Assembly: GCA_008632985.1 (NCBI GenBank)
Contig: QPGO01000126.1
Span: 1 to 64,000 of the forward strand
DNA: 64,000 bases
From: Psammoneis japonica
Taxonomy: Eukaryota
Direction: 5' to 3'
The notes below the pieces were generated by a model that was given only the letters and a program-made list of their open reading frames with translations, did no database searches and had not been told where the DNA came from. Shown here piece by piece: positions 1,702 to 27,410 of the stretch (position 1 is the stretch's first letter; every line of letters starts with the position of its first letter). The position numbers were made by a program, and so were the translations under genes.

Positions 1702-2943
1702 ATGGACGACGACGACGATCCTTCCGAACGAATCCTCGCTGCAATGGCACGAGCTACGGGACTGTCAAAGTCGCATTTTCTGCACCGTGCTTGCGTCTCT
1801 TATGGAAAAGGACACCATAACTACGTCGATGCAAAAGAAATTCATTTGTATCATCTTGACAATTTGGTTGAGCTGCCGCGCGAAATTCGCTTGTTGCGTC
1901 GACTTGTCGTTTTGGGTTTATGTGCCAAGGAACTTGAGCGGATCCCTCGCGAAATCGGACAGCTGCAGCGACTTGAAGAATTGTGTTTAAGACTCTGCCT
2001 CGAGGTCGTTGCATTGCCCAATGAAGTGTTCAATTTGACAAGCTTGAAGAAGCTGTTTTTGCGTGGTTGCAGTGCTCTCAATAGTTTGCCCGCGGGAATT
2101 GGGCAATTGAAGCAACTCCAGGTCCTTGACCTTCGCTGCTGCCAAAGTCTCGAAGAGTTGCCAATGGGAATTGGGCAGCTGCAGCAACTGAAAACACTTG
2201 ACCTTAGTCACTGCAAAAGTCTCAAAGAGCTGCCAGATGAATTGTGGCGGTTGACAAACTTGGTGGAGCTGGATTTGAGTGATTGCCGATCCCTCACTCA
2301 GTTGTCCCCTGAAATCGGACAGTTGCAGCAGCTTAAGGAACTTGATCTTTCTCGTTGTCAGAAACTCACGAAGCTCCCAATTGAGATTGGGAAGCTGTCG
2401 CAGCTGGAAAAACTCCTACTTCAAAACTTCTCCGAAAGCTTGGAACAAAACCACTCCGGTGGCTTGGATGAATTCTTGCAAGTCGCCGTGAGCAATCTGG
2501 TCAACCTGACGAGCTTAGATCTTAGCTATTGTTCCGAACTTGTTGTGTTGCCTCCCGAGATGGGATTGCTCACAAAGTTGGAGTGCTTAGTTCTGCATCG
2601 GTGTAAGCAGTTGACGACAATTCCAAAGGAAATCCTTGAGCTGCCGAGTCTTTGTTTTCTCAACTTGTGGGGTTGTTCGTCGCTTGCATGCACACCCAAG
2701 GACATTGGAGAAGCTTCATATTCTGTTCAAGAAGTGTACATGCCGATGTATGATGAGGGGCGTGCAGAAATGGATTGCTACACCCAAATGAATCGCGCAG
2801 GAAGACACTTGCTGCGTCGCCACGATGTGCCGGCAGCTCTTTGGCCGCATGTCTTGGCAGGTCGGCGCAGCGATGAGAACTTTATTTTGTGGTTCTTGAC
2901 GAACAATCCGGACTTCGTCAAGACAGGAGAAAACAAGGAATGA
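1702..2943 (+). CDS. Leucine-rich-repeat protein (plant NLR-like 24-aa LRRs) with diatom-type C-terminal NRAGR..LWP motif
   Basis: Repeated LxxLPxxIGQLxxLxxLDLxxC units; ATG at 1702; intact ORF. Confidence 0.9.
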   Translation: MDDDDDPSERILAAMARATGLSKSHFLHRACVSYGKGHHNYVDAKEIHLYHLDNLVELPREIRLLRRLVVLGLCAKELERIPREIGQLQRLEELCLRLCLEVVALPNEVFNLTSLKKLFLRGCSALNSLPAGIGQLKQLQVLDLRCCQSLEELPMGIGQLQQLKTLDLSHCKSLKELPDELWRLTNLVELDLSDCRSLTQLSPEIGQLQQLKELDLSRCQKLTKLPIEIGKLSQLEKLLLQNFSESLEQNHSGGLDEFLQVAVSNLVNLTSLDLSYCSELVVLPPEMGLLTKLECLVLHRCKQLTTIPKEILELPSLCFLNLWGCSSLACTPKDIGEASYSVQEVYMPMYDEGRAEMDCYTQMNRAGRHLLRRHDVPAALWPHVLAGRRSDENFILWFLTNNPDFVKTGENKE

Positions 2944-3654
2944 GTACCCTCGTATTATGAGTACTCAGTGGCAGTTCTTAGGTAAATGTAGGTAGATGTG
3001 CAAGTTCTAGGTCAATATCTGATTATTATTTATCATTGTTCCTTACTGCTAGAGCGGATACCATTCAGATTACAGCAATTCTGATGCGCCCGTTAAGGCG
3101 TAGAGTACTTGTTGGGATATGATACGGTACCGAGTATGGACAGAATGGGACAATAGGACCTCGATACTCGACATTACATTGCTCTTCATTGGTCCTTTTT
3201 GGCATGTGCTCTCGGGGTACGAATGCTGACATTGATACGACTAGCTGTACCCGTGGCCTGACTATGATGAAAATTCTTGATCGTACCCTATCCTCTTGTA
3301 TCTTGTTCAATCTTCAAAGGATACTGCGATAGTTACCGTCTTTGCTTGATGACGATGACGAAATGGAGCTCAAGAGGAGAGCGTCACTGGCAGTTTCGTT
3401 GGATGCTAGCATGACGTATGGCTTTGCGACTTTGTCTGGCTCCGTCTTGTCGTCTTCGGCTGCGGCCGAGAACGGCGGCGGAGGCATATTGTAGCAGCAC
3501 AAAGAAGAAGAAGGCATTCAATCCCACGCCGTAAATGAGTAAGACACCATTGTTGGTACCCATGATGCTAACATTGGTATCTGCAGTTGACATGGCCAAG
3601 TTTATGAGGCATAAATGCGTCAGTATACCACAAATAATGACACATTTGCATGAT

Positions 3655-4649: not shown

Positions 4650-5034
4650 TCAATCTTTCTTCGTCATAGTGCGCGGCGGCTGGGTGTCGTCGTAGTACTA
4701 GATAGTGTTGGGATTGGCGTTTTCCCGTACATCAATCACAGCATCCTCGCGTGGCAAATTGACACTATAGTCACAATAATTCTGTTCTCCCATCGTGTGT
4801 GTTCCCAACAAGAGTGAGTGCTCATTGATACGAGGCAATTGTCTCGTCACGGGCAACCACTGGCAAGTCAGCAACGCGGCCATTCCAATGCGTGCGTCAT
4901 GACGGCAATGTCGTACAAGTAAGGAGTGTTTTTCTTCCAAATCTTTCATTCGGCATCAATCATGCGCTCTTCCATGGCTGTCGCAAAGTCAACCTTGTCC
5001 TTGAGGACTGTGCCTGAGCGGTAGACGACGACAT
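4650..5034 (-). pseudogene. N-terminal fragment of RBBP4/MSI1, disabled; copy 2
   Basis: LTCQWLPVTRQLPRINEHSLLLGTHTMGEQNY; direct repeat of 690-1094 with frameshifts. Confidence 0.8.
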
Positions 5035-5799
5035 GGTGGCTGTTTGTGTTGTATTGATTAGGGAGAGTCTATGGTACAGTACCGTATTGGAAGGGGTGGG
5101 TCTGGGGAAATGTGTGGCGGAAGGGTCGCGCGAAGCGCGCTTTAGGGGATGGAGAGAAAAAGGGTGGGCCGAGAGTGCGGACAGACGGTTGAGAGGAGGA
5201 GTTGGTAACAGCAGGGTGGCGGAGTAGAAGGGCTTGATACGTAGAAAGATGGGTGGAAAGAGCAAAGCCGAAGTTAAGACTGAGGATTTGGGAGGCCCAA
5301 AGCGATGGTGTTGAGGTGTGGTGTGAAGAACCGAAGCGGTCTTGAGAGAGTTGTTTCCAGGCCGAGTTGGAGGAGGCAAGGAGATCAGAGGGTGTGAGGA
5401 GTGAGTTGGTGCAGGCGGAAAAGGTTGTTGCAAAAAAGATTTCAGAAAAATGGCATGCAGCCATTGCATTTGGCACATTTCAGTGCAGAAAATCACATGT
5501 GTAGAAACATGCTTGAATCTCAGGAGCGACAATGACAAGACATGGACACTGCTTTCAGGAGGTCTGATTGTCATGCAAGAGTCTTGGTTTGGTGAAAAAC
5601 AGAGTTGCCATTGTGTTGAAGTCAAAAAATGCGTCTTTTCCATTTTTGAGTGGCAAAACCCATGCTTTGATCTTTGTTTGTTAAAGACACCTCCTCTGTT
5701 GCCTGCCATTGCTGGTGTCTCTCTGTCACAGATGCGAAAAGTGCTCACTGTCTTGGGCATGCTGTTTGTGTGATCTGTGGCAAGTGATGTCAGTCGCAA

Positions 5800-7200
5800 C
5801 CGTGTGGTCTCGCATCGGCATTTTGAGACTAACACCGACCCATGCTTTGATGTTTGTTTGTTCCTTTCATCTCTTTGCTCACACTTCTTTGATCAAATCT
5901 TTGCTTTGCAGTTGTGGGAGCATCATTCTGTCTTAGAAGCACAACAACAAATCCACCAAGAAATGCCAAGCAAAGGTTGTGGTTGACGCGTTTGACACAA
6001 TGCCACAGCTCCACTCCACATTGATGTGCGCTGCCTTGAGCCAACAATTTTTGAGCATTTGTGTGGGCGTGAGTGGCGGCACCCCGTTGTGGCCAGGTCG
6101 ATGGGCGTGGAGCACACATTGTTGTTGAGCAAATCCCCAGTCTGCATGCACAGCATGCAGCACACCATCTTGAAAGTGTCCTTGTTGCATGTCTGCCAAG
6201 TGCTGGTTCACGGCAGACAAGTGCTGCAAATCGGTGTCAGCTCTGGGAAACTCAAAAATCGAGTGCAAATCGATGAGAGCACCTGTGTTCGATGTGACAA
6301 ACAATTGCAGCAGCACAGAACAAACAACTTTGCACTTGCCTGCAAGCTGAAGTGGGACCCCGTGCAATGCACAAGCCATTTGGAAAGACTGTGGACAACA
6401 TCTTAATTCTGTGAATGTGTTTGTGGCCCATGCAAACAGATCACTGCATGTCGTCCAAGTCGGGGCACCAAGGAGCATCCACCCAGTCATCAGCTGGCCC
6501 TGTTCCAGGAGTGTTTGTTTCAAAAATTGAACAATCCTCAAAGCCCATGATGTTGAATTCCCCTGGCAGATGAACAAGACCAGGGACATTGCACACTTGA
6601 TTGGCACCTGGGTCAGTCCAAGAAGCAGCCCGTTGCTTCAGTTTGTGCACTGTTGCTCTGGCGAACAATGGAAAATCATCCTCAACCCATCTCTGAAGCG
6701 CTTCTTGCCCAATGACTGGAGCATGTCCATCATCAAGACACATCAAAAACTGCCAGCATCCATGTGACCACCAAGTCAAATCCCTGCCTCCAAAGTGGTT
6801 GTCCACCAACACGGTGTTGTCGAGTCCAAGTGCCACCTCAGTCAAGGAAAACAAAAACAATTTCTCACCAGTGAAATGGCGATGATGCCCATGAACACAT
6901 GGCACAAGAACTGTGTTGGGCAGCTCAAACAAATCATGCAACACTCGCAACTCCTCCACGTTGAATCAAGTCATGTGTTTGGCACAGTTGTCAGAGCAAT
7001 CATTGATTCATTGGTGATGTGTGTGAGAAAAGTCAATGGGACGATGCTCCTCCTCATGTGTCACATCACCAACAGATGAATTTGCATCTGCCCAAATCTG
7101 AGCCACATTGCGACATGCAAAAATGCTGCCCACCAATGCACGTGCAAGAGCAATGCCAAAGGGCTCGTCTGCATTGCCAACTTGCTCTAGATCCAACAAA
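5800..7200 (-). mobile_element. Degenerate PIF/Harbinger-like (DDE_Tnp_4) transposase relic
   Basis: Motifs FTGEKLFLFSL, IMGFEDCSIFETNTPGTGP, GHKHIH.IK.LS.VFPNG and KAAHINVEWSCG across broken frames; TpA- and CpG-depleted. Confidence 0.65.
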
Positions 7201-8234
7201 TGCCCATTTTCCTGATTGCCAACATCAACTCTGGGTGCAATCGAAAGTGGAGTGACAGCTGCAGACCATTGAATGACTGATTGAATGGAGTGCATCCAGA
7301 ACAGACCAGCCCCTCTCATGTTTCTGTTTGTGAGCCACCGCGCCAATTTGCAGTGGTGTCCATGGTGAAAAAGCCTTGGTTGTCTTGGCATGACATGGAT
7401 CACAAGTGCAATGATGATGCAAAAAGTGTTTCTTGCCTTGGCGGATGAGAACCTGCAACCCCATCGTCAAAGCATCAAAGTGCAGGCCTGGAGGCCTGGT
7501 TGAGGGTTGAAGCTGATTGGGCCGGCAAATTGTGATTGAGTCGAGTGTTGAAGCACAAATGGATGAGAACCCTGGACCCATGACCCGCAAGGGTCAGCAA
7601 GAACACTCTCCAGTGGAGAGCAGCTGGCTGGACAGAGAGAGAGAGTGGTGCAAAATTTCTGCCAACGGAAAGTGAAAAGGATGGAAAAGTTGATTTTGGC
7701 ATGAAGAGAGTGTCTTTGCCACACTGCAAGTCGTGACATTGAAAGAGAGCAGTGAATGGATGGAATGCATGTGCAAATGTTTCACGTGCACACATGTGCG
7801 TGAGAGAGGACATCAGAAAATTAGAGATTTTTTTGGCGGGAAGCTGTTTTGTTGATCTTCAGGAATTCTGTGAGACAAACCAAGACAAAAACCTTCCGGG
7901 CTCAAGCAACAGATGGAAGATAGAAAGATCTCAATGGAGGATCTTAACATGAGTGTGCAGAGTTGATTTGTCAACAAATGTTTCAGAAAATTTTGATGAT
8001 CAACCAATCATCACCATGGTGAAAAAGAATGGCATGATGGTGCCAGAATGAAGAACAAACACAGAAAATCTCTGTCAGTCTTAACACAGCAATCAGCATT
8101 GTCTGACATCACATGAAAAGGATTCAAGGACACAGACCCATGCAAAGAGAACAAGCACCGATCACCTTGATCGGGCAGCTTCAACAGATGATTGAGGATG
8201 ACACAAAGGCTGGGTTTTTAGACCAACCTGACAA

Positions 8235-8730
8235 CCGCAGGGTGGCAGACCTGAACAGTGTCAGGCTGCATCAACAGAATGCTTGCATTCTGACATTCAG
8301 ATCAGACAAAATGAGGTGGATTGAGATGACAATCTCAGTCAACTGGATTGCTTGGATCACCCAGATCCAGCATGATTTGAGAGGGCAAAGGCCAATTTTT
8401 AGAGCAACCTCCTGACAATTGCAGGGTGGTGGACCTGAACAACATTGGGCCACATTGACAGGAGGATGCTTGCACTCTGACATTCAGATCAGACAAAACA
8501 AGGCTGGATCGAACTGCAATCCATGTCGACTGGCTTGCGGAGAGTGCCCGGATCCAGTGCAATCTTAGAGGCATCTGAGGCGGCGGGAACATGATCCCAA
8601 ACCATGCCAACAGCAAAACCCAACTGCAATGCTCGCACTTCAACAACATCTGTTGAAGTCAACGAAGACAACACAGGTGCATCACACACAATTGGCTGGC
8701 TTGCGGAGATTCTCTGGATCCAGCACAACG
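8235..8730. repeat. Degenerate tandem repeat, period about 190 bp
   Basis: ctgacattcagatcagacaaaa at about 8290 and 8477; tggcttgcggaga...ggatccag at about 8531 and 8697. Confidence 0.6.
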
Positions 8731-9400
8731 CGTGATCAACAGACAGATTGTGGTGGCCAGATCAATTGATCAATGCCAAACCACAGGACAATCAGCACCA
8801 CATCCAATGCATGGGCAATTGCAAGAGGCACACCAATCAGTGGAAACAATTTTTTCAGTGTTGTCGGCCCACATGTCGGGTTGACGCAACTGATCCCATT
8901 GTCACCGGAAGTCTGCCAAACACAATGAGGGGAACTGGGGGGTGGCCTCTAGTCATCGTCCATCTGTCTGTGCTGCCTTCTGCTGTGCGCTTCCATCCCA
9001 CGGTGACTCCTCCAAGAGTTCAGCCACCCACAAGGTGTCCTCTCCTTGTGCTGGGCCCACCATCTTGGCACCAACAAGAAGCAGAAAAAGGCATGGAGGA
9101 TTTGTGAAAAAAAAAATTCTCAGCTTTCTCATTGTGCAAAGTCCAAAATGGAAGAGTTCTGGGTTCTGCAATTCTTTAAGAACAGTTGCAAGATTTCCTG
9201 CACTCAATTGGCACTGTCAGAACAACGTCAATGGAGACCAACATTTATCAAAATGCTTGTTGTTGTTCTCTTGACATGAAAACGAGTGGTTCATGGTGCT
9301 CTTGTGCAAGCACAGCAGAGCTGCTGGTTGTTTGCAACATTGTCAGCATTGTTGAGCTCCCGAGAAATGAGGCGGCACTTTTGGTCAACCTGTCACGTGA

Positions 9401-9423
9401 TGTGTGTGTGTGTGTGTGTGTGT
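9401..9423. repeat. (TG)n microsatellite
   Basis: Direct reading. Confidence 0.9.
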
Positions 9424-9758
9424 TGCACAACATCACACAAAAGAGAACTCACAATGAGAATTGCCACAGCTGAAATGGTGTGGCGCTTGTGATTCATCTT
9501 GACGCTTGTGATTCATCTTGTTTTCAGCATGCATGGCAGGTGCTGAACATGGCAGTGTGGAGCAGTGTGCCTTGGCATGTGCTCACTTCAGACAAAATGG
9601 TGTGGGGATGGTTTCCCATCAGTGCTGGTTGAACAGTGGGGACCGGTTGCCACGGCGACGAGACTGGNACTTGCGATGGTTCTGGTGCCTCGTGCAGCCA
9701 AACGTTTGGCTTCACGCATGCTTGATTTAAAGACTGGTTTGAACATGGCCAACCAGTT

Positions 9759-12700
9759 TCAAATCCAGTGAGCAGAGTGTGACAGGTGTTCTTCTGCCGA
9801 ATCAAGGAGGAGCGCCTTGTCTCTCGCAAGACAATCGTCTGTACGAGAACAAATGGCCTTGACCTCTGCTTCTGCGTCTCGTCTTTGAGACGACATCCTC
9901 GTTTCCGAATCGTGCCCGTGCACAGCGTCGTTGTGAGCATCCCAGAGGTCCCACCACTGCTCCCACATGAAATTCCCAATGGTTGCAGCCCAATCCAGCC
10001 GTTTCTGTTGATCTGAGAGAGTCCGACAAATGCCGCTCGACGAAAGGTGAGAGGTTTGCGTCGCATTCCACTGGACAGAAAAACGGCCATCAAACAACTG
10101 ACGCCAACCCATTTCCCCTTGGGAATGAAATGCGGGCACGACGCTGTGATGAAATTGTTCCGAGTGCAAAAGCTCGCCTCGAAACCATGCTTCAATGGCC
10201 AAAATTGTCAAGTCTCGTAAGGAAGGAGACATGTGAATGTCATCGCACTTCTTGCGCAATCCTTGTAAAAATTTTCTGTGCCAGGCTTCATCATGAGGGC
10301 AACGGAGAATGTGATCTCTGTCTTCCATGGGGTCCTGACAGTGAATGCAACAGTCCGGACGTGTCGGATTGCATCTGTGTGCAATCTTGTTGGTGGGCAG
10401 AAGATCTTGAACCAGCTTGACGGTGCTGACTTTTCGACGAATGTTTCGCGACATCAATTTCGAATGAACGTCCCAATCAATCGATGCGCACACTTCGTCG
10501 GACCAACCATGTTTCTCTTTCATGTGCTGAACCAGTGCGGGACTCGACGCCTGACATCTGACAACCGGCTTGCATTTGGAAGAAACAGTGGCTCCTTGAA
10601 GAAGCAGGTTTGCTCGGCAATGAGGCATGCGGGGAGCAGCAAGAGTGTCGCCCGTAAAACGACCTTGGAATTGTCCAGCGAGTCTGTCGGCATGCATGTT
10701 CAACTTCGCCGCTTGAGAGAGAGAGTCAATGGGAAGGACATCGTCTTGGTGTCCCTTCGCCCAGTGAATCTCGACTGTGGGACACGACAGTTCATCAGTG
10801 CGTGTTTCTGACAGCTGTCTTGGGGAATGGAAGACCTCATTGACAATGTCCCAATCCGGAGAGAGAGCATTGGCAATGTGAAAACGCCAGTGGAAGTCTC
10901 CTTGGATCTCCTCCTCATCAGCAGGATGAGGAATCACCTGGAAATTTGAGATGGTGCGAATGAGAGCGGAATTGTCGCAATGCAAATCGGCGCCGCTGAC
11001 CTGTGTAGAACAACAGTCTGACAATCGGATCAGAAAACGGAGAAAAGACAGCAGACCGCATGCCTCCGCACGACAAGACGATGGGCGAAAACCGAAAACT
11101 GGACCGGCACAATCCACAAGAGGAACCCCGTCGATCGCAATCGTCCACCCGAGTGCACCTTTGAAATGGAGGACCGAACCGTCGCTAGCTGCTGAAACCT
11201 TGTGGGTGACGAGGAGCTCAGCGATTTCAAACACAGACCGATGCAAATGCAATTCTTCGAACAGAGCAGATTCCCACCGAGGAAGAGACCGCAGCACAGC
11301 CAAGAAATCACTCGGGACGGGAGGGACTGTCGGCAAGGATGCTGGAGAACCGAATGACTTGATCCGCCACAAACCGGTTGTAGTCGTATCCACTGGCACA
11401 GGGGAAGCAGCTGGGGAAAGATCTGGAACATTTTCCAGAGCGGCGAGAGTCTCCGCACAACCTTGGTGCACTGGGAAAATCTCGAAACCCGAATCTCCAC
11501 GAACACACAAGCAATCCTCGGAGGATTCGTAATGTGCGACATGTGTCATGCGCATTTCCGTGGCTGGCACAACCCATTGACCTAAAGGGTGTCGTAGATC
11601 GAGCGAGTCTGGTTTGCAAAACAAGGAACAGGCTCGACGCCACTGTTTCCATGCCCGAGCGGATGGACGTTGTTGTTCGATGGGATTCAGAGTGCTGCGA
11701 CTGCTGAGAAGGAACGATCGGCCGTTCACTTTAAAGGGATCGAGCGAAAAACCATCCGGAGAGGCAACATCTGATGGAGTCAAAACATTTGGATAAAGAC
11801 GACAGCAGTTGACCCACCGCATCTCACGATTGCTGAACGCCTGGGATTGAAGCACAACGTCCATGATGCATTGGTCGTTGTCTCGCTGGAGTGGAAGCAC
11901 TCCAGCATGATCACAATCGATGGTGGCATCGATCCGGGCCAAGAATGAACGCAAGGACATGAACCATTTCGATTCGGAATGAGGGAGCTTGGCATGGACG
12001 TCCTGAAGAAAACTCACACCTGCACCAAGCTGCAACTGAATCCATGATGCAGCGATTCGCGACAACACCTGAGGTTGCCCAGAGCCCCGCCAGTGGGTGA
12101 GAAACTGCAGAACCTGCACTGCACCCTGTTCCACGTCTAAAGACCTGAAACAACCGCCTCCCAGGGAATGAGGTCCGAAGAGGACATCACGTTTCGAGTT
12201 CCGATTGCACCCGCATTTGGCAAAAATGGCACGCATGGCCTTCCTCTGTACTTCGAGCAACTCTTTCTCCTTGAAGTGAGTGTTCGGGAGAACATGCGTG
12301 GTTGCAGACAGATGACAAGCAAAATGGTGAGTCCATGACTCATGTCGATCTAAAGGACAAGACCAAAGGAACAGGGCAATGCCGTCACTCTTTTGTTTCA
12401 GAGCCGAGTGCTGGGTCTTTTGAGTCCCCGCTGGAGCTTTGCAGTGTCCAAGTGTCGTGTGAGAAGAGCATGCGGACAATTGTTTGCTTGACCCAGTCGT
12501 GGCACGGTCTGCAGAAGAGATTTCAATGTCAATGTCCTCGTTGTGGGGTCGAAGGCAAGGTTCGCCGTCCTCTGCAAACATCCATTCGACAGCGTGGAAG
12601 GAGCATTTGGGCAATTCTAGCTCGTGGCCAGCCGCGCTCAAAAGGTCGCACCACAGTTGATCATCTTCCTGCATCTTGAAAGCCAAATCGAGGATGCAAG

Positions 12701-15599
12701 GTTGAGGACTCGAACAAAAATCGTTCACCTGCTTGGACGTGTCGTCGACATGTCCTCCGTTGAACATCTGCAGCGAGAGGGAGTGATCTGGGGACTCGAA
12801 AAATGCACCATGTGCCCATTGATCGAAGATCTGGAACAGACTGTTGCAAATTTGGTTCCAGCAAAATGGAGAGTTTCCACTGCCCTGTCCTGTTCCGCAA
12901 ATGGGGAAGTCATCAGAGTGAGAACAAGAAGTCAGTGACAGGCCCAGCACTGTTCGCAACCAGCAGCAAGCCTTGTGAACAGTGGCGCCAGCGACTTGAG
13001 TGACTTCTTTGGGCATGCCATTGCTGCGGCTCTCAATTGCAACCAGAGCGGGAATGTTCCGATCGCAACACGATGTGCAATCATCATCGCTGTGAATGGC
13101 AGATTTTCGGGAGGCACGGCTGATCTCGAGCATGAGTTCTTCAAGGCACACAGGAGTGTTGGCATTTAAGAAGGCGCGAGTGCCGTAGATCCCCGAGTTG
13201 TGTGATTGGCGGTGTTCCATGTTTTGGGCCAGAGTGCGCCACTTGACGCTCGAGATTAATTGAAAGTCAGCTTCGTAGATGTGGATGACACGGAGCCGAT
13301 GCATCTTGTTGTTGCCTGGCTCTTTAAAGATCATCACATTGACAACATCTTGCCAGCGGTGAAAGGAGCATCCCCAACGAAGGGCACAGTTAAGCAGATT
13401 CAACCTGATTTGAATGAGGGATTGTTGAACTTCATCGAGGGCCTCACGTTCAGGGGTGGGATTGCCTTCGGAATCAGTTGCATCTGAGAACCGATGAGGA
13501 GCATGCATTGCTTTCCAATGACCTGGGTGGAGGCCGGAGCAAATGGACGTGGAGGTGGATTCTTTCCAACGTTTTATTTTTCCTTCGAGATCTGATGCAG
13601 ACAGAAGATTCGGTGCAGAGACTGGGGAACGGTGACGCAAGTGGTTGATGAAAAGGGCAGTTGCTTCGTTCAAAGCCGACGTGTCACACTCACCATCAAG
13701 AACAAGATCCGCCATGACAGTGTCACCTTCACAGCCTGGGTCCATGGATGACGGAGGTGCCGTTGGAGGGGTGCCTTGTGCCTGACCGAAGTGTTTTTGA
13801 TTGCGTTGACGGAGAGCAGTGGCTGCCTCTTCCGGAGCGTCAACAGTGGTCCAATCTTGACATTCTTTGGGAGGAATGGAAGGATTGCTGGGAACTTGGA
13901 CACTCTGAATGCCTGTGTCCCTCTGAGTGTGGCATGAGTCAATCTTCCTGAACAGCTTTTTCATCTCTTCTGCCTTGCGGATGTTGCGCAAGACAGTTGC
14001 CTGTTTACGTGACTCCTCAGTGCCTTCCAGATCGAGTGCGGCTGTCCTCTCGGAAACTTCCCTTTCGCGGTGTGCGACACTGTCAGCCGCCAATCGCTTG
14101 CAATCGTCTTGAGCAGCGCGTGGCGCCTCTTGACAACCTTGTGAAGTGTCGGGGACAGTGAAGGATCCACTCAGTTTGTCTCGCATTGCTCGAATCTGTG
14201 ATGCACAGTCCAATTTTGTCCTCATCATGGATGCGAGGTGGGAAAAGACACACACCCGGTACCTCAGGTCTGAAAGTTCAACCGACCAGTCGGGTTCGCG
14301 ATGAGTTCGGCATTTCTTGGCAGCAGAAAGAGAGAACTGCAGGAGATCACGGTCCAACCGTTCAGCCAGAGCATGATCTGGAGCATCAAGTTCCAGTGGC
14401 TGGAAAGAGTGTTGCAACACCGAACGACTCTGAATCATTGGGCCGATTGCCTGTAGACAAGAGGTGAGCTGTGGTTTAGACGTAGCCTGAATGTCCCTGA
14501 AGGATGCCTTGGGCAAATTGACAGTCGGGTTGCCGAAAAGAGCTGCGGTGTCAAAGTCCACGAAGTGAGCACAATGATCAGAAGTGACTCGATGTCCAAA
14601 GGCTTCACATCCACCGAAGCGAGCTGCAGCAAGAGCGCCAGGAGAGGCTGGTGCGCAGTCAAGACGCCGGGAACCTCTGGCACATGTGGAGAACTCAGTG
14701 TCGCCCATGATGTTAAACAGGACGTCAGACAAATTGAAGCGCTGGGCAACGGCAGCCAAAGAGTCAGTGTCACAGGTGAAATCAGTGTCAAAGTCCCCAA
14801 AAATGATGACTTCTCGATTGGAATCCGCCAGAAAATCCTGCAAGACTCGGGATGAGTCTGTACAAAACGCCTTCCTGGGATCGAGTGACCGGCGCCCCAA
14901 TTGCCGGAGGAGGGCCAATTGTTGAGCGTACGCCGTTGTCTTCCCTGGGTGTTGTTGGTTCTTGGCGCAAACTCGACAGCAAGAGACAAACACAACTTGG
15001 CGTCCATTCCCACCGTCGAAGACTTGAATTGACCACCTGCCGAGTGGGTCGGATTCTTGAGTCCGGAAGCGAGCAGAAATCGAATTGCATGACAACAAGG
15101 CCGTTCCACCCGGTTTGCATTGCATTGCAAAGGTGGTGGAACTGCTTGAAAAGGCAGACCGCCCATGATGTAAAGACTTGGAAACAGCAGATCCACACAC
15201 GGACAAAATGTCGAATTGGGTGGTGTCGAGGCACACCTCCGAGATGCCAATGACATCGGCTTGAATTTCGGAGGCGAGTTGACAGCACTCGTTCACATCA
15301 CCGCCACGCTTGTCGAATTTACAACCGTTGGCATTGAAGGCGTAAAGGCGCGCATGGTGAGAAAGCTTGGGCCGGAGTTCGTCGCCCACAGGTGCGTTGG
15401 TCTTCAGTCGAGAAAAATCCATCCGACGATCTGTGGGAGGGTGGTGACTGCGTCCGTCTAGGATGTTCTGCCAAGCAAGAGCTGGATCTTCAGCAGAAGG
15501 CGAACGACTCATTGTTGGGCCATGCTCCTCCGAAGAGAAGACTGAGGCTTGGAGCACTGCATTGACTTGGTGTTGGTTTGGAAGGAAAAACTCCGGCAT
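9759..15599 (-). CDS. Retrotransposon ORF2: APE endonuclease, reverse transcriptase, RNase H and C-terminal Cys/His knuckle; probably non-functional
   Basis: APE: N.NG, ISE, GDF, RLD, SDH. RT: KEPGN.K.HRLRVIHIYEAD, SCCDR, GTGQGSGNSP, GHVDD. RNase H: ASDGS, RAEA, CDN, KGHQD, N.HAD. Knuckle: CIHC..EDRDHILRC. The reading frame continues past the TGA at 9759 to about 9670. Confidence 0.9.
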   Translation of the reverse strand: MPEFFLPNQHQVNAVLQASVFSSEEHGPTMSRSPSAEDPALAWQNILDGRSHHPPTDRRMDFSRLKTNAPVGDELRPKLSHHARLYAFNANGCKFDKRGGDVNECCQLASEIQADVIGISEVCLDTTQFDILSVCGSAVSKSLHHGRSAFSSSSTTFAMQCKPGGTALLSCNSISARFRTQESDPLGRWSIQVFDGGNGRQVVFVSCCRVCAKNQQHPGKTTAYAQQLALLRQLGRRSLDPRKAFCTDSSRVLQDFLADSNREVIIFGDFDTDFTCDTDSLAAVAQRFNLSDVLFNIMGDTEFSTCARGSRRLDCAPASPGALAAARFGGCEAFGHRVTSDHCAHFVDFDTAALFGNPTVNLPKASFRDIQATSKPQLTSCLQAIGPMIQSRSVLQHSFQPLELDAPDHALAERLDRDLLQFSLSAAKKCRTHREPDWSVELSDLRYRVCVFSHLASMMRTKLDCASQIRAMRDKLSGSFTVPDTSQGCQEAPRAAQDDCKRLAADSVAHREREVSERTAALDLEGTEESRKQATVLRNIRKAEEMKKLFRKIDSCHTQRDTGIQSVQVPSNPSIPPKECQDWTTVDAPEEAATALRQRNQKHFGQAQGTPPTAPPSSMDPGCEGDTVMADLVLDGECDTSALNEATALFINHLRHRSPVSAPNLLSASDLEGKIKRWKESTSTSICSGLHPGHWKAMHAPHRFSDATDSEGNPTPEREALDEVQQSLIQIRLNLLNCALRWGCSFHRWQDVVNVMIFKEPGNNKMHRLRVIHIYEADFQLISSVKWRTLAQNMEHRQSHNSGIYGTRAFLNANTPVCLEELMLEISRASRKSAIHSDDDCTSCCDRNIPALVAIESRSNGMPKEVTQVAGATVHKACCWLRTVLGLSLTSCSHSDDFPICGTGQGSGNSPFCWNQICNSLFQIFDQWAHGAFFESPDHSLSLQMFNGGHVDDTSKQVNDFCSSPQPCILDLAFKMQEDDQLWCDLLSAAGHELELPKCSFHAVEWMFAEDGEPCLRPHNEDIDIEISSADRATTGSSKQLSACSSHTTLGHCKAPAGTQKTQHSALKQKSDGIALFLWSCPLDRHESWTHHFACHLSATTHVLPNTHFKEKELLEVQRKAMRAIFAKCGCNRNSKRDVLFGPHSLGGGCFRSLDVEQGAVQVLQFLTHWRGSGQPQVLSRIAASWIQLQLGAGVSFLQDVHAKLPHSESKWFMSLRSFLARIDATIDCDHAGVLPLQRDNDQCIMDVVLQSQAFSNREMRWVNCCRLYPNVLTPSDVASPDGFSLDPFKVNGRSFLLSSRSTLNPIEQQRPSARAWKQWRRACSLFCKPDSLDLRHPLGQWVVPATEMRMTHVAHYESSEDCLCVRGDSGFEIFPVHQGCAETLAALENVPDLSPAASPVPVDTTTTGLWRIKSFGSPASLPTVPPVPSDFLAVLRSLPRWESALFEELHLHRSVFEIAELLVTHKVSAASDGSVLHFKGALGWTIAIDGVPLVDCAGPVFGFRPSSCRAEACGLLSFLRFLIRLSDCCSTQVSGADLHCDNSALIRTISNFQVIPHPADEEEIQGDFHWRFHIANALSPDWDIVNEVFHSPRQLSETRTDELSCPTVEIHWAKGHQDDVLPIDSLSQAAKLNMHADRLAGQFQGRFTGDTLAAPRMPHCRANLLLQGATVSSKCKPVVRCQASSPALVQHMKEKHGWSDEVCASIDWDVHSKLMSRNIRRKVSTVKLVQDLLPTNKIAHRCNPTRPDCCIHCQDPMEDRDHILRCPHDEAWHRKFLQGLRKKCDDIHMSPSLRDLTILAIEAWFRGELLHSEQFHHSVVPAFHSQGEMGWRQLFDGRFSVQWNATQTSHLSSSGICRTLSDQQKRLDWAATIGNFMWEQWWDLWDAHNDAVHGHDSETRMSSQRRDAEAEVKAICSRTDDCLARDKALLLDSAEEHLSHSAHWI

Positions 15600-15624
15600 C
15601 GTGAAGTCCGACGGAAAATTGATG

Positions 15625-17365
15625 TCAGCGCAAGTGGTGAGTGGGGCGAGGAAACAATGTCAGGAGGTCGCCTGATTTCTTGAGGGGGTGGAGGCGGCGA
15701 AGTCCAACCCCTGCCCAAAAATCCGTCTCCCGTTCTTTGTGGTCGCCAGGGCGTTCAGGAGTTTCCATGTTGTTGGGGCGTTTTCTGGCTGAACTCTGAA
15801 CAGGTTGGTTTGCTTGAAGCAGTTGAACAATTTGGTTCATTTGTTCCTGCACTGCAGCCAACTGTTGGGAATGCTGAAACTGCATGGTGGCCATGTCCTG
15901 GGAGTGTTGTTTGGTGTGCTGACGCAAGGGAAGAACTTGTAGACGACTGAGTCGCTTGAGCGTGCGAATGCAGAGGGGACGAGATTCCTGGGCATCCAGA
16001 ACATCCGTGAGGAGTTGCCTGGAAGGAGGGCCTGGGGGCGAAGATTTGCGGAGGGACTGACGGGCTTGGAGAGTGGCCTCGACCAGGGGTGCCACCACGA
16101 CCATGGCCTCTGCCCGCGAACTGTGCCGGAGGAGGAGGACGGTTTGACCTCGAGGCCTGGGTGTCCGTCAATGGAGATGCGTCTGAGAAGGTCAGGGACT
16201 CCAAACTGCGGATGCTCGCAGACACTGTGGATTCACTGGCTTTGGACTGCTCGTCAAGCACACCAGACATGTGAGGTTGATCGGGAAATGGAGGAGACGG
16301 CCAAGATTCTTTGGGGACATTTGGAATTTGATCCATGATGCATGTAGAGATGCCAGCACGGGAAGCTTTGAAATCCGTACGTTTGACCAACACATTGCAC
16401 CGACCAGGGGTGGCACTAGACTTGCAGATCTCTTTCACTCCGGAGATGGCCCTGATGTGGTTTTCCAAATAAAACATCACATCCGGGGAGGTGCACAACA
16501 GCGGAACCACACAAGCATCATGATTGCGACAAGCTTGGAGTTTGACGGCGTTATAGAAGGTGAGTGGCGACATGTGCCGTGTCTTCGCCATGACAATGTG
16601 TGTCGGCAGCTTGTTGGAGGCGCACAGCAAGGTTTTTCCTGCAGTGCGGCAATCGTCTTGTTGCACTTCGATGGCATGAGTGACGGTGCAAAGGGGAGGA
16701 GCCAATTGATCGTTGTCGGCACGAATGGAGGCAGGTGCGAGACGAAATTTCGGCATCTTGGACTTGAATTCGCCCAGATCTTTTGCAAACAACTTGGCAG
16801 CTTCGTCGATCGGAGCATGCTTGGATGGGGCAGCGACACAATGTGCCGGAGTCGCCGTGTCGATCACTGACTCATTCCAGCAGTGGCGCTTCAAACCCAT
16901 GTTGTTTGAGTCTAAAATGCTCTGAACATGAGGATGAGAATGGATCTCTCGAAGGGGGACTTTGGTTAAAATGCGGTGGCACAGGCGGTGGACGACAGGG
17001 CGTTTTTCTCCACTGCGAGTCGCAGAAATCGTGAAGTGATGTTCGTGCTGAAGGGTTGCAATCCATTCTGCAATGTTGACATTGGTGATCTGGTTGTTGT
17101 GGTTGTCCAGGATCTGAACATCGTTGTGACACGTGAACAGGATTTGTTGCAAAACTTGAAGATGAGCGGTGGCAAGGGTCATTGGCTTGCACGTCGCCTC
17201 CGGGCCACGAATGTCAACGCGCAGGGTGATCTCCACACAGGGAGGCTCTTTCGGTTTAGAAGAAGGTTTGTTGGATGCGTGATCAACAGTGATGTCGTCC
17301 GCCATGTTGATGTCGTTGTCATCATTGGGGGTGTGGCTGCCGTCAGCGACGGAACGAGACGCCAT
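15625..17365 (-). CDS. Retrotransposon ORF1 (probable frameshift near 16.0 kb)
   Basis: Long ORF directly upstream of ORF2 on the same strand; GRG-rich segment and a Gln-rich coiled coil in the overlapping 15625-16104 frame. Confidence 0.65.
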
Positions 17366-17449
17366 GGTGTGTCGGCAGTTCTGCGGAGAGCGTGGTGCTA
17401 AAAACACGCAGGCATGTTCAGTGCAAGCAATCGCAGAATTGTCAACAAC

Positions 17450-19700
17450 CATGCCTCAGAAGAGGTTGGGGCAGCGGTGCTTCTTGTTGAGCAGTGTTGG
17501 CAATGACATCGTCCCTGCAAAACATGCGCCATCATGTGAGGGAGTCTGGCACACTGGAAGGGTGCACCACAAGCAGCAACATCCCAGTGCACTGCTGCCA
17601 GTTGAAGGGAGTGGCAAAGTTGGGATCATTTTTGTTGCAGAGAAAACTGGCACCATTGAGTGCACTGCAGCCAACAGAATGTGGGGTGTGGGAGGTTCTG
17701 TGATTGGCCCTGGGAAGCCAGGTCTGGCAGATCTGCTTTCAGCTTCTGTGGCAAAATGTGGAAGGGCTTGGCAATTTGATGGTCCAACACTCTTGATGGA
17801 GCAACCTTTGTGAGAGTCTCTGACTCCATGGTGCAACACAGGCAGCTGGAAGGGACAAGACAGTGGGGCAAGTGTTCTCATGGTTTGCATGCTTGGATTT
17901 TGATCAAATGCCTGTGGAGTGCATTGCCATGGATGTGCTTCAATGTTTGGTTGCCATGTGAGCTGGATGGCCCCAGCTGTCAGTGACCATGATGATGCAG
18001 TCAAGAAACCACTGCATCTGAGCTTGGGGAATCATCACACATGAGTGTCAGAATGAACACCTGAGAAGGCCCTCACTTGGTTTGGGTGATGGTCAGTCTG
18101 CAAGGTGCTCTTGAGCTGGCAGATGCACCTGAGGATCTGGATCATGATTGTTTCTTTGAAAAGTTTTGGAGCTGAGATCCTGCAACAGCTCAGTGCCAGG
18201 GTGGTTTCTTGGCCCAAATGGCAGTGGACAAAATCATCAATGTGGGCCTCTGCTGCTTGACAGTTGAAGTTTGCTGGTGGGCAACATTCAATTTAAGAGA
18301 GTGTTTTTGAGCACTTGCAGATGGCAGGCTCATTTTTGGTCATTCAAGCTCCACTGCACTGCTTCTGTGAAAAGCCATGTTGTGTTGTCTAACTTGGAAT
18401 CTTCTGAAGAGAAGAAGATGGGAAAGGGGTTCACACTCTCTGTGTGTTGGCTTTGACAAAGAAACAGAGTTTTTCAGTCCTTGTTTTTATGTGGTGGTTG
18501 CCATGATGCAAGAAGCATGGTTTGGTGCACACAGCTGCATGGCGTTGTTTTGACAACATTGTGACAAATTCAAAGGCATTTTTGCAGCATGGGCATTTTT
18601 GAAGTGGCAATGCTTGGGTCTTTGCCTGATCAATTTCCAGTGCTGATTGAACAGCCCACATGTTTCAAGAGACAAAAAGCCATGTTGCCACCCCCAAGCA
18701 GCTTTTGCAGATGGAAATGAGAGACAAGAGGAGCAGCAATGATGATGACAGTGGTGGCCACAAAACAACAGCAGTGGCAGCGGCAACAATGATGACAATG
18801 GCAATGTGAACAAGAGTGGCAACAGCAATTGCAGCAATGGCAACAATGCCAGCTCTGAGCAACTTGCATTTCAAGAGACAAAAATCCATGTTGTGAGGGC
18901 TTGAGCAGCTTTTGCTGGCAGAAAAACAAGAGACAAAAATGGCAGCAATGACAAAAGCAGCAGCAAGGGCTGCAATGCTGGCAACAGCAACAACAACAAT
19001 GGCAACAGCAGCAAGCTGAGGCACAGCTGCGCCACACTCATTTGATCTCCAGACACCCCAGCCACCAGGAGACCACTGTTTTCCTCTGTGGCTCATGAAG
19101 CGGCAACCCAAGGGTTGCTTTCACACATGCCTCTCATGTGCTGGCATGCATGGGCATGAGGCAGAGACTCTCCATTTGGAACTTGCTCGACACAGATTGT
19201 GCTTGTCAGGCAGCTCCAAAACATCACGCTGCTTCATTTCTCAAACATGCAAAACACTTCATTGCCAAATTTGTGCACATGACTCCTGAAAATGCCACCA
19301 ACAAACATTGCGATCAACGTCACTTTTCGCAACCACCGCCAGCTCTGCGATTTCTGTGCCAGGCTTTTGTGTGGATTTCTGCGTGAGCATGGCTCCTCAG
19401 CATCATGGTTGTTGAAGCAATTGCAGAACCAGCTGACAGCTGGAAAGACAATTTGACTTCCTAAATTTTTTTCACTGGAAACTTCGTGCGTGCAACACGC
19501 ATCATCACCAAAAATCGGCAACATGACGGTGTTGCATTGTCGTGACAACAGCAACAACAGCAACATGTCCTCAGATGTTTGAGCATTGCAGACATTTGTT
19601 TTGGTGCGTTTAGGAACGGTTTCAGTCATGAAAGCCCCCGTGAGAAACCTCCGTTTGAAAGCAAAACGGCAACCAACACCGAGCTCTGTTTTTTTTTCCC
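17450..19700. other. Heavily mutated, low-complexity repeat relic (TpA and CpG depleted)
   Basis: No TA found by eye between about 18490 and 19460; GCA/ACA-rich runs; internal duplication tttcaagagacaaaaa at about 18663 and 18869. Confidence 0.6.
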
Positions 19701-20024
19701 GACCACTGTTTGATGCGTTCGATTGTCAAACGATCAAGAGTTTGTCCGGGGGACTTTCTTGACATGTGTGTGTTCCAAACAGTGCAATTGATTCATTTGT
19801 CAAGTGTCCATTGCACAGGCGTCCCCTCAGAGCATCTGAAAAGTGTCGTCATCGTCACAGTGCGTTGCATCGCGCAAATCGCAAAAATTGCACGACCGTC
19901 GACTGTCCGACATTGCAATGCTGCGCGCGACTTCTGCGCACACCTTTCCGATGATTGTTCGCATCCCGCCCAGAGCATCGAAGATCCACCAACATCTCAC
20001 TTGCTTCACAATCATTGAAAGACA

Positions 20025-21395
20025 ATGACGGACTCCAGTTTGACGTTCCAGTTGATCTACAGTGACGGATTCAGTGGCAATTCGAAAGAGTTGCTCTGGG
20101 AATTTTACTCTCTCGCTCTTGCTCCATTCGCTTTCGGTGCTCCTGCCGAGCAAGTCCAACTGTTTCTCGACAATGGGCTCCTTGACTTCTCTGACGATGT
20201 CCTTGACAATGGCGTTCGAACTGTGGGGAGTGGCAGCATCGAAACCCTGCCATGTTTCCCGGAATCTCATGAACAGCATTTCAGAACGGTCCACGGTGCC
20301 GCAAGGATCGTGGAGGATGCAAAGAGTCTTCCCTCCTGTTCATTTAGAATTGTGTCGGGCCATGGCTTCAGTGGGTTCGCTGGTGGTCATGTTCAGTTTG
20401 GAACAAGCATTTGCCATTTTGCCAATTTTGGATCAGCAGCACCCCATTTGACAATTCTCGACATGTGCAATTCCGCACATGCGCTTGCTTCCTTCATGGG
20501 AAATTTCCCACTGGAGAATCCGCGGCGTTTCAACAGCAAACACAGGGCAAAACATGTCTTTGTCAAGGACCCAAATCTTCCCGTCGCTTGCGATTCGAAC
20601 CCACACGTTTGCGCCTTTAGGATCGGGGTTGTTGGACAACACCTCAAAGAACACTTTATCTTAAACGATGACGTGCCGGGCATGTCTCTTCCTGTGGGGG
20701 ACTCCGTCACGTCCAGTGCAATTGCTGCAGTTGGTGAACATGTGCAACAACCCATTGACCGTTGTCACTCATTGGACGATTTGTTCATCGCCAAGTGCAG
20801 TGACAACCTCAAAACGGTTTGTCTCGCGTCAGATCACACACTCAAGCCATTCTGTAATCTCCAAAAGCTCCAGCAGCTTGTTGATGAACACAAGATCCAG
20901 ATCAACACGACGGTTTTCGATTGTGAAATGTTCAATCGACAAAACGAATGGTTCCTGACCTTTGAGCTGGCTGTGAACCTCTCTGTTGACCAGGAAGACA
21001 TGGCCAAGGACATTGTCGATTTCATCATTTCATGGATTGTCTCATGGCACAACAAACACCCCAATTCTGATGTGGAGTCTCTGGAGGCACAGGATGCCTG
21101 GACGAAGCTTGCCCGAATGATGGGCCCCCATCAGCAAATGCTGACTCATGTCCACATTGGACAGAATGAAACAACCCAACAAACATGTGCATCTGCCGAA
21201 GATGAAGGCATTGAGGTTGAATCATGGGTGTTGTCTTGCGAGTCGCTGACTGGCTGCATCGGCCCCGTGAGTCGGAAGATTGAAGCGGGCAGTTTTGAGC
21301 CATTTGTGGAAGAAGACGATGATGTCAAGGAGAAGAACAAATCCCTTGCCAGTCAAAAGTCTGGTGACTCAGGTGTTGTTCCTGCTCTTGTTTGA
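20025..21395 (+). CDS. Hypothetical protein with a possible clan CD (caspase/CHAT-like) His-Cys dyad; TpA-hypermutated
   Basis: 456-aa ORF; IVSGHG and LTILDMCNSA motifs; very few Tyr. Confidence 0.45.
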   Translation: MTDSSLTFQLIYSDGFSGNSKELLWEFYSLALAPFAFGAPAEQVQLFLDNGLLDFSDDVLDNGVRTVGSGSIETLPCFPESHEQHFRTVHGAARIVEDAKSLPSCSFRIVSGHGFSGFAGGHVQFGTSICHFANFGSAAPHLTILDMCNSAHALASFMGNFPLENPRRFNSKHRAKHVFVKDPNLPVACDSNPHVCAFRIGVVGQHLKEHFILNDDVPGMSLPVGDSVTSSAIAAVGEHVQQPIDRCHSLDDLFIAKCSDNLKTVCLASDHTLKPFCNLQKLQQLVDEHKIQINTTVFDCEMFNRQNEWFLTFELAVNLSVDQEDMAKDIVDFIISWIVSWHNKHPNSDVESLEAQDAWTKLARMMGPHQQMLTHVHIGQNETTQQTCASAEDEGIEVESWVLSCESLTGCIGPVSRKIEAGSFEPFVEEDDDVKEKNKSLASQKSGDSGVVPALV

Positions 21396-22029
21396 TGTGG
21401 CGCCAGGGCCAAAAGCGATTTGACCATCAGACCGCAACGTGGGTGTCTGACACTGCGAGAAATCTGAAATGAATTCATTCCAATGAGAGCTGTCAGCACT
21501 CAATTGCATTGTTTCCATGGTCAATGCAAACAAAACACAAGTGCTTCAATGTGCTTTTAAACATCCCAGCTGTTTGGAAAGCCATTGTCCATCTGCTGTG
21601 TAGATCAGCATTTCTGTGCAAGATTCGGCACATGAATTCTGCGTGAGAAAACATTTCTTCTGACATCATTCTCATCATGTCATCAAGGCTCCCTGTTTCA
21701 CACCTGCAAGCCCCAAATGTCCCTCTTTTCACTTGCTGGCTTGCCAAGCTTGCTGTTCTGAGCAGTGACCTGATTGCTGTTGTTCCAGTGCTTGCAAGTG
21801 TGCAACCTGGTCAGCAGCTGGTGAAGACAAGATCCACATCCTTGGAAGCAAGATTTTCTCCCACAGATCTTGCGCCACCAACATCACATCCTGTTTTGAA
21901 TGTCGTGATCATGTTCTTTGCTGTCATGGTGTGCATGTTTTGCATTCTTTCCAAAGGAAAGCAATGACCTCCTTCCAGTGCAGCCCAATTTAGACCAGTT
22001 GTCTCCAGCGGGCATCGCTGCAAAGTGGA

Positions 22030-27379: not shown

Positions 27380-27410
27380 ATGGCAAGTGGCATGGGGGAG
27401 ATAGCGACGG

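Follow-up and report, generated by a model that had tools for sequence, protein, structure and literature searches.

Locus and identity of the retrotransposon

The DNA analyzed here, referred to below as the window, is a stretch of 64,000 nucleotides from the diatom Psammoneis japonica (contig QPGO01000126.1, positions 1 to 64,000; GenBank assembly GCA_008632985.1). On its reverse strand it carries a non-long-terminal-repeat retrotransposon resembling long interspersed nuclear elements (LINEs), whose second open reading frame (ORF2, positions 9759 to 15599) has stayed open while bearing missense changes of the type TA to TG or CA throughout. ORF2 measures 1946 codons from its ATG and 1966 codons from stop to stop and is read in the standard code to a single terminal stop codon. 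ORF1 of the same element (15755 to 17455, reverse strand; 566 codons from stop to stop) lies about 155 nt upstream of ORF2. Just downstream of ORF2, positions 9393 to 9432 are occupied by a (CA)n/(TG)n microsatellite.

In a library of 1.8 billion proteins, ORF2 had 6158 relatives at E values of ≤1e-3, the best of them at 43 to 44% identity, and it aligned end to end with homologues of 1870 to 2050 amino acids with no frameshift relative to them. No Pfam family was matched by ORF2 itself at E values of ≤0.1. When 25 homologues were scanned for Pfam domains, Exo_endo_phos reached its cut-off in the N-terminal part of 15 and zf-RVT in 1, while RVT_1 was found as a sub-threshold match in 7 (below the cut-off in all 25) and RNase_H as a sub-threshold match in 1. 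From residue 19 on, ORF2 aligned with the Exo_endo_phos-bearing homologues in the region where it has no such match of its own. An N-terminal endonuclease is predicted for ORF2 by this homology, with the motifs CKPGG, STCARG, and RLDC damaged. Support at the level of the family came from Protein Atlas, in which clusters combining RVT_1, Exo_endo_phos, and RNase_H scored 0.92 to 0.99; host genes matched there with a score of only 0.82, too low for the taxa of these matches to bear on the identity of the organism.

The reverse transcriptase was identified from its fold because searches of PDB by sequence found nothing: a profile of nine sequences gave no matches at E values of ≤0.01, and a single homologue gave only one match, at an E value of 0.2, to an L1 endonuclease chain. 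Residues 640 to 1080 (positions 12360 to 13682, reverse strand) were modeled by AlphaFold2 with 36 homologues; the model had a mean predicted local distance difference test score of 89.8, and its top 14 Foldseek matches in PDB were all R2 or human LINE-1 ORF2p (E values of 8e-16 to 1e-11; template modeling scores relative to the query of 0.52 to 0.67). The fold was thus matched to both human LINE-1 ORF2p (9hdo, 8c8j, and 8uw3) and R2 (9dou and 8gh6). The element further resembles these in that homologues of its ORF2 possess an N-terminal apurinic/apyrimidinic (AP)-type endonuclease and that ORF1 lies upstream of ORF2. It differs from LINE-1 and R2 in that the fold matches share only 11 to 14% identity and in that its protein of about 1950 amino acids consists of a predicted endonuclease, a reverse transcriptase, and a C-terminal half that is RNase H-like and zinc binding (zf-RVT-like). 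ORF1 was also found upstream of ORF2 in the loci of 18 metagenomic relatives (tblastn, E values of 3e-34 to 4e-5). Neither the exact ORF2 product nor the exact ORF1 product was present in a collection of 15 billion proteins. The element is a full-length two-ORF LINE-like retrotransposon, presumably of the AP endonuclease type, and the reading of the 1946-codon frame as a retrotransposon ORF2 in a preliminary description of this DNA was borne out by the homologues, the reverse transcriptase fold, and the upstream ORF1.

The preliminary description had also counted about 7 tyrosines in 1946 residues and had noted an excess of cysteine and histidine. There are indeed 7 tyrosines (0.36%), the lowest proportion in a set of 160 proteins made up of ORF2 and 159 fetched homologous proteins (homologue mean, 3.43%; range, 2.16 to 5.3%; z = −4.7); none of the 159 fell below 2.16%. 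Cysteine (80 residues, 4.11%) ranked highest of the 160 (homologue mean, 1.86%; maximum, 3.56%; z = +4.5). Histidine (90 residues, 4.62%) was ordinary for the family, since the homologue mean was 4.07% and 33 of the 159 had as much or more. The excess therefore stood for cysteine, and for histidine it held only against generic proteins. ORF1 was also poor in tyrosine (0.4%, with 4.1% cysteine and 6.0% histidine) and contained 11 TAs versus 92 expected.

Changes at conserved positions of ORF2

A transition of TpA to TpG or CpA, which would correspond to A to G on one strand or the other, in repeat-rich DNA, would convert tyrosine codons (TAY) to cysteine (TGY) or histidine (CAY), the leucine codons TTA and CTA to serine (TCA) or proline (CCA), and the isoleucine codon ATA to methionine (ATG). 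ORF2 was compared with 31 full-length homologues over 320 columns conserved in at least 70% of them. In the 13 such columns occupied by tyrosine, ORF2 kept tyrosine in 3 and had cysteine in 8 (TGT or TGC) and histidine in 2 (CAT). Other residues conserved at this level were retained: tryptophan in 21/21, histidine in 11/11, cysteine in 6/6, threonine in 12/12, glutamate in 8/8, and glycine in 45/46 columns. The difference between tyrosine and the remaining residue columns was significant (Fisher test, P = 3.9e-7). Over the 28 columns with a tyrosine majority, ORF2 had cysteine in 16, histidine in 5, tyrosine in 3, phenylalanine in 2, and tryptophan and aspartate in 1 each. Conserved columns that had changed numbered 47, and 18 of these changes, including leucine to serine with TCA, leucine to proline with CCA, and isoleucine to methionine with ATG, could have arisen through TA>TG/CA in a codon for the consensus residue, compared with 0 to 7 for each of the other 15 dinucleotide-transition processes. 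Read on the sense strand, the TA-derivable changes comprised 11 A>G and 7 T>C.

The preliminary description had held that the altered motifs of ORF2 match every TA-containing codon, and most of the motifs that it had named agreed with the alignment, in which the homologues carried the original tyrosine, leucine, or isoleucine, and not cysteine, histidine, proline, or methionine, at most of those columns. Tyrosine was the majority residue at the cysteines of CKPGG (17/31), STCARG (19/31), RLDC (18/31), SCCDR (28/31), ICGTGQG (18/31), and RAEACG (19/31). The SCCDR site, with tyrosine in 28 and phenylalanine in 3 of the 31 homologues, is one at which a near-invariant residue was replaced by cysteine. 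Within SSCRAEACG the assignment stood for the second cysteine (that of RAEACG), while at the first, tyrosine was merely the commonest residue (14/31). Leucine to proline with the codon CCA was found in GLHPGH (leucine in 29/31), RLYPNV (26/31), and LTPSD (17/31), and isoleucine to methionine with ATG was found in KMHRLR (isoleucine in 26/31). Two of the named changes failed as one-step TA changes. For GHVDD, proposed as tyrosine to histidine, 30/31 homologues have phenylalanine, and for WAKGHQD, proposed as valine to alanine, the alanine codon is GCG and the homologues have valine (18) or isoleucine (12).

TA loss in all codon phases

ORF2 contains 36 TAs, whereas 329.7 would be expected from base composition (observed/expected ratio, 0.11); the corresponding ratios on the sense strand were 1.31 for TG, 1.43 for CA, and 0.83 for CG. 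The expectation for a frame of this length, derived from 38 relatives whose frames are open over 1600 codons or more, was 269.5 TAs, and about 230 of the roughly 270 original TAs in ORF2 have been converted. In the coding DNA of 80 metagenomic relatives, the TA observed/expected ratio was 0.38 to 0.84 (median, 0.69) versus 0.11 in ORF2, and none of the 80 loci was below 0.38. TA survival was 0.10 in TAx (tyrosine) codons, 0.13 in xTA codons, and 0.16 at codon boundaries. Since TA loss was even over the codon phases, non-synonymous sites were not protected; selection spared nothing, and the loss was no weaker at non-synonymous sites than elsewhere.

These values bear on the possibility that the LINE is alive and that TA is avoided by adaptation, for example, as an escape from a TA-directed defence, with the frame under selection. 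Such an explanation would be in keeping with two full-length open frames that lack any frameshift relative to homologues and with the multiple copies of the family in the sequencing run described below. However, near-invariant residues such as the tyrosine of SCYDR have been replaced while tryptophan (21/21), histidine (11/11), and glycine (45/46) were kept, TA survival was 0.10 in the tyrosine phase versus 0.16 at codon boundaries, and the ORF2 endonuclease gave no Pfam match whereas 15/25 homologues were recognized. Moreover, copies differ in having TG or CA at the same site, and an open frame is expected even without selection (see below). A living, adapted element is therefore very improbable.

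TA-erased islands

TA was profiled as observed/expected ratios in 1-kb bins and as counts in 250-bp bins, which resolved edges to ≤250 bp. The LINE lies within a TA-erased island of 19.5 kb (5251 to 24750) in which, per 1-kb bin, the TA observed/expected ratio was mostly 0.02 to 0.2 and the ratios of TG and CA were mostly 1.3 to 2.0. In gene-bearing stretches of the window, the TA ratio was mostly 0.5 to 0.8. The CG ratio in this island was 0.7 to 1.0 inside the LINE and mostly 0.3 to 0.8 outside it, with a value of 0.04 in one bin. The left edge of the island was sharp (12 TAs in 5001 to 5250 and 1 TA in 5251 to 5500), and at its right edge, a zone of intermediate depletion (24751 to 28000) contained 1 to 10 TAs per 250 bp. 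Three further islands, in which the TA ratio was likewise mostly 0.02 to 0.2, were found: a small one at 46501 to 47750 (0 to 4 TAs per 250 bp; flanking bins, 15 and 30), one erased of both TA and CG at 48751 to 52999 (TA, 18; CG, 77; TG, 467; CA, 481), and another erased of both at 57251 to 64000, which runs to the end of the window. Other borders were equally abrupt, with counts per 250-bp bin going from 1 to 12 at 53000 and from 23 to 0 at 57250. TG and CA counts were nearly equal in the islands (471/471, 792/749, and 467/481), indicating that both strands had been mutated. The edges of the LINE island did not coincide with the ends of the LINE; TA erasure is regional, extending over the whole 19.5-kb island, and is not a property of the LINE.

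A paralogue pair as a natural control

A leucine-rich-repeat (LRR) gene segment outside the island (1665 to 3653, forward strand; LRR ORF at 1603 to 2943) served as the reference for a hypermutated paralogue inside it (22035 to 23949, forward strand), with which it shares 75% identity over 2028 bp. None of the 63 TAs of the outside copy was kept in the inside copy; 31 were CA and 23 were TG (54/63). The outside copy has 85 CGs, and the inside copy kept 17 of them, 30 having become CA and 21 TG. Per-site rates were 24/63 for A>G after T and 32/63 for T>C before A, compared to 5 to 10% in other contexts. The 51 CpG outcomes clustered weakly by strand (P = 0.018). Because the LRR paralogue carries the TA loss, the mutator must also act on DNA that is not of retroelement origin. 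The outside LRR copy is itself low in TA (observed/expected ratio of 0.33 in the bin 2001 to 3000 and of 0.27 over the ORF), which may reflect the codon content of LRRs or a mild exposure to the process.

This control also bears on a possible RNA-stage origin, in which an ADAR-like enzyme would edit A to I at UA and reverse transcription would then insert a copy that was already mutated. The element is a retroelement, and Mettrop et al. (bioRxiv 10.64898/2026.01.13.699255) note a preference of ADARs for a 5′ U. Against such an origin, island DNA of non-retroelement nature flanking the LINE carries the same signature, as does the LRR paralogue, both strands were changed in ORF2 (11 A>G and 7 T>C), and the island has edges other than those of the LINE. 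Moreover, ADARs are a metazoan family. ADAR-type editing, marked by A>G on the transcribed strand only and limited to retro-copied sequence, was rejected as a candidate on finding that both strands, the flanks, and a gene paralogue were hit, and we consider editing at the RNA stage highly unlikely.

Persistence of open frames

Under the proposed TA>TG/CA process, a frame would remain open while its protein accumulated missense changes at conserved positions. When all codon contexts were enumerated, no sense codon could become a stop through TA>TG/CA, as the preliminary description had stated; among the stops themselves, TAA becomes CAA or TGA under this process, and TAG becomes CAG or TGG. When four processes were simulated on the frames of 33 intact relatives with 20 replicates each (660 in all), erasure of 85% of TAs (mean changes, 226) gave a mean of 0 new stops and left 660/660 frames open. 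None of the 660 frames stayed open under random transitions (mean changes, 226; mean new stops, 8.6), CpG decay (224; 14.5), or CpA>TpA changes of the type made by repeat-induced point mutation (RIP) (226; 38.5). Since TA>TG/CA cannot create stops and destroys TAA and TAG, the ORF2 frame is expected to be open without selection. With conserved residues replaced and the frame open, the earlier view that the element was inactivated by missense while looking intact was upheld.

TAA and TAG together occurred at 7.4 per kb over both strands of ORF2 versus 35 in host DNA. All 16 of the stop-to-stop frames of at least 200 amino acids that overlapped sharply bounded islands had 0 to 0.7% tyrosine, and in this window the expectation that long tyrosine-poor frames would be left behind thus proved correct. 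Frames of at least 100 amino acids numbered 34.7 per 10 kb in the islands, with the LINE left out, versus 20.4 in host DNA, in which real genes are included. Because TAA and TAG are lost and new stops never arise, false gene calls are expected, and gene finders will call long tyrosine-free, cysteine-rich frames in TA-erased DNA. A filter of <1% tyrosine combined with a TA observed/expected ratio of <0.2 would flag such frames.

Context of surviving TAs and rate relative to CpG decay

For the 130 TAs remaining in the islands, context was expressed as the density of each T-A-N trinucleotide on both strands relative to that in host DNA. Residual density was 0.026 for TAT (0.021 in ORF2 alone), 0.062 for TAC (0.168), 0.126 for TAG (0.164), and 0.212 for TAA (0.256). 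Among tetranucleotides in the islands, ATAT had no survivors and TTAA was overrepresented 5.6-fold, and six of the seven surviving tyrosine codons of ORF2 are TAC. The densities suggest a 3′-neighbour preference of the mutator in the order T > C > G > A. If the mutator preferred TAY on the target strand, the more frequent replacement of tyrosine by cysteine (16 columns) than by histidine (5 columns) would also be explained.

The CG observed/expected ratio of the LINE was 0.83, compared to a median of 0.96 in its relatives, while about 87% of its TAs were lost. TA erasure is by far the faster process, since the LINE, a younger insertion, has retained most of its CpGs despite this loss of TAs; as a rough estimate, these values suggest a per-site rate of TA erasure that exceeds that of CpG decay by an order of magnitude. 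TA erasure and CpG decay are two separate processes in the same islands, and the latter would proceed more slowly through deamination of 5-methylcytosine. In diatoms, DNMT5 is documented to methylate transposons at CpG (PMC9998398).

As to the chemistry of TA erasure, the sequence of the window alone cannot distinguish an A-directed from a T-directed reaction. The likeliest route, one proposed for Bigelowiella, would be the deamination of adenine in 5′-TA-3′ of DNA by an enzyme of the TadA/ADAT type, with targeting that would follow silent or repeat chromatin. Alternatively, the thymine of TpA might be modified, e.g., to 5-hydroxymethyluracil (5hmU) by a TET/JBP-type dioxygenase in silenced repeats, and miscoding or faulty repair would then give T>C. 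A palindromic TpA modified in this way would yield CpA and TpG equally, and TG and CA are symmetric in the islands. Passages of two papers on dinoflagellates describe 5hmU as a base modification on repeats, which makes it a possible alternative chemistry: in Crypthecodinium cohnii, the T of TA and TC is preferentially replaced by 5hmU, and in Amphidinium carterae, transposable elements are marked by 5hmU loci (PMC11572971 and PMC11071213). The same passages report no mutational signature, and the Breviolum study found no TA preference. In addition, the lineage differs, and TpC is unaffected here, as T>C before C occurred at 11/109 sites in the LRR pair, which is not above background. Abundant 5hmU is not known to have been reported in diatoms. 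On balance, a 5hmU-based route is conceivable but unlikely.

Copies of the element in run X1

A single public sequencing run (X1), in the form of contigs, contained the stretch (share of words, 0.47); no RNA run was listed as doing so. Positions 9000 to 18000 were matched by 914 X1 contig pieces at a likeness of at least 80% (153 at ≥99%, 175 at 95 to 99%, 172 at 90 to 95%, and 414 at <90%), and the LINE family is therefore multi-copy. Differing places were dominated by transitions (A>G, 224; G>A, 281; C>T, 165; T>C, 175), with 32 to 67 in each transversion class. Among the 40 best supported of 1225 differing places, 5 had TG or CA in the window versus TA in the X1 read, and 10 formed 5 adjacent pairs with TG in the window versus CA in the read or the reverse. 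Such adjacent TG/CA pairs are predicted if one ancestral TA mutated independently in different copies. Another 11 of the 40 places were other changes.

The copies also permit a sequencing or assembly artefact to be weighed, in which modified bases at TpA in silent chromatin would be miscalled as G or C. Modified bases do cause systematic miscalls on some platforms. However, the X1 contigs are up to 315 kb long, and the reads must therefore be accurate; 153 pieces match at a likeness of ≥99%. Miscalls would not resolve to TG at one place and CA at another, nor would they differ between copies, and CpG decay runs in parallel in the older parts of the islands. Furthermore, a preprint on Bigelowiella natans reports the same signature as real de novo mutations in Illumina-sequenced lines (bioRxiv 10.64898/2026.01.13.699255). 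An artefact is scarcely credible as the source of the signature.

Interpretation and relation to known systems

We conclude that the element is most probably a dead, full-length LINE in an island subject to regional mutation of TpA to TpG or CpA at the level of DNA. This reading draws on how the observed changes are directed and how specific they are, on the extent of the region that they cover, on their occurrence on both strands and in non-retroelement DNA, and on the lack of protection of non-synonymous sites. Several observations weigh against it or limit it. Of the 47 changed conserved columns, 29 are not TA-derivable, and part of the divergence of ORF2 therefore appears to be ordinary or lineage specific. 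The 54 TA outcomes in the LRR pair formed no strand runs (runs test, P = 0.80), and thus the LRR outcomes give nothing in favour of processive single-strand events. The intermediate zone at 24.75 to 28 kb did not have the same order of residual TAs (TAC, 0.36; TAG, 0.48; TAT, 0.55; TAA, 0.64), and the 3′-neighbour order, resting as it does on 130 TAs, could in part reflect new TAs made by C>T. As for X1, the 40 places were not a random sample, 14 of them were of the CpG type (TG or CA in the window versus CG in the read), and the run may be connected with the sample used for the assembly, so that X1 is not independent proof.

In Neurospora and other ascomycetes, RIP converts CpA to TpA and introduces numerous stops. 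The process proposed for the window resembles RIP as a dinucleotide-specific transition hypermutation of DNA that is confined to repeats and kills transposons, but it runs in the opposite direction: TpA is destroyed and no stops arise. RIP itself was rejected for ORF2, in which TpA is depleted to 0.11, CpA and TpG are enriched, and no stop occurs in 1946 codons.

Hypermutation at TpA has been reported for nucleocytoplasmic large DNA virus (NCLDV) and virophage regions of B. natans, for which a preprint gives the following account (Mettrop et al., bioRxiv 10.64898/2026.01.13.699255). In mutation-accumulation lines, 231 of 302 nuclear mutations fell in two integrated viral regions; almost all mutations in those regions were A>G or T>C, all of these on TpA, and the de novo TpA mutation rate was about 1000-fold above background. 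Low-TpA coding sequences were enriched in reverse transcriptase, endonuclease-reverse transcriptase, and DDE domains, and the authors proposed an ADAT2-like adenine deaminase. The window shares with B. natans the restriction to TpA, the products TpG and CpA, the depletion of TpA with enrichment of CpA plus TpG, and the clustering of mutations in repeat or foreign DNA, the genes nearby being spared. The two differ in that B. natans is a chlorarachniophyte whereas the host here is a diatom (a stramenopile), in that a LINE and the island around it are hit here, and in that erasure here is near complete (mostly 0.02 to 0.2) compared to a TpA observed/expected ratio of 0.45 in the B. natans NCLDV region. 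The words "tyrosine," "stop codon," "retrotransposon," and "diatom" do not occur in the text of the preprint, which thus describes neither the coding consequences nor the 3′-neighbour order (bioRxiv 10.64898/2026.01.13.699255). A literature search, from whose coverage most subscription journals were absent, found no TpA-erasing mutation described in diatoms or in other organisms besides that preprint. New here are the consequences for tyrosine and stop codons and the residual-TA order TAT < TAC < TAG < TAA.

More tentatively, and with somewhat less than an even chance in our estimation, diatoms may own a chromatin- or repeat-directed DNA mutator that rewrites 5′-TA-3′ (best in TAT and TAC) and is the same system as that of the rhizarian Bigelowiella, i.e., an ancient genome defence of the stramenopiles, alveolates, and rhizarians that kills mobile elements by missense and erasure of tyrosine codons, far faster than CpG decay, and leaves open ghost frames behind. 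If the main reading of a regional TpA mutation holds, a second, distantly related algal lineage would possess the TpA-erasing hypermutation known from one preprint, a conserved adenine- (or thymine-) directed genome defence would become likelier, and the enzyme could be sought in a second system. The LINE provides a clean coding readout of the process, since thousands of homologues give the state before mutation and loss is equal over the codon phases, and the residual-TA order constitutes a motif to be matched against candidate deaminases.

Other features of the islands and of host DNA

Within the LINE island, a 234-codon tyrosine-free frame at 5933 to 6637 (reverse strand) had a weak match to DDE_Tnp_4 (E value, 0.005) and is probably a hypermutated DNA-transposon remnant. 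In the partly TA-depleted zone at the right edge of that island, an 844-codon frame at 24845 to 27379 (forward strand; TA observed/expected ratio, 0.30; 1.7% tyrosine) matched NDC10_II (E value, 1e-32) and GCR1_C, an architecture that we take to be that of Crypton-like elements; this frame may be a younger or less-targeted insertion. Between two TA-erased islands lies a 1196-codon frame (53196 to 56786, reverse strand) of normal composition (TA observed/expected ratio, 0.68), which contains 11 RHS-repeat stretches and DUF6531 in a bacterial-toxin-like architecture. Part of the TA- and CG-erased island at the end of the window (59001 to 62000), beside runs of N, has a strong C-rich strand skew (C, 37 to 43%; G, 14 to 17%); no tandem repeats that might cause the skew were found at 59 to 62 kb.

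Host genes of the window have long uninterrupted frames of 706 to 1196 codons. The gene-bearing host DNA includes a YqgF/RuvX frame (44637 to 45617) with 46 matches, of which only three carry an organism name; all three come from diatoms (Seminavis robusta, Nitzschia sp. Nitz4, and Cylindrotheca fusiformis; 41 to 45% identity), and the best match lacking a name is at 64%. A Helicase-associated (HA) domain is also present in the window; such domains are common in diatoms. By these signs the host is probably a diatom that lacks close annotated relatives. Two fusions were also observed in host DNA, namely, an enolase-superfamily domain joined to a zinc alcohol dehydrogenase (28632 to 30959, forward strand) and a methyltransferase joined to a 6-phosphogluconate-dehydrogenase-type NAD-binding domain and a 2-oxoglutarate-Fe(II) oxygenase (31133 to 34219, reverse strand), the latter, a frame of 1028 amino acids, having only four matches, the best named of which was from a dinoflagellate, at 44% identity.

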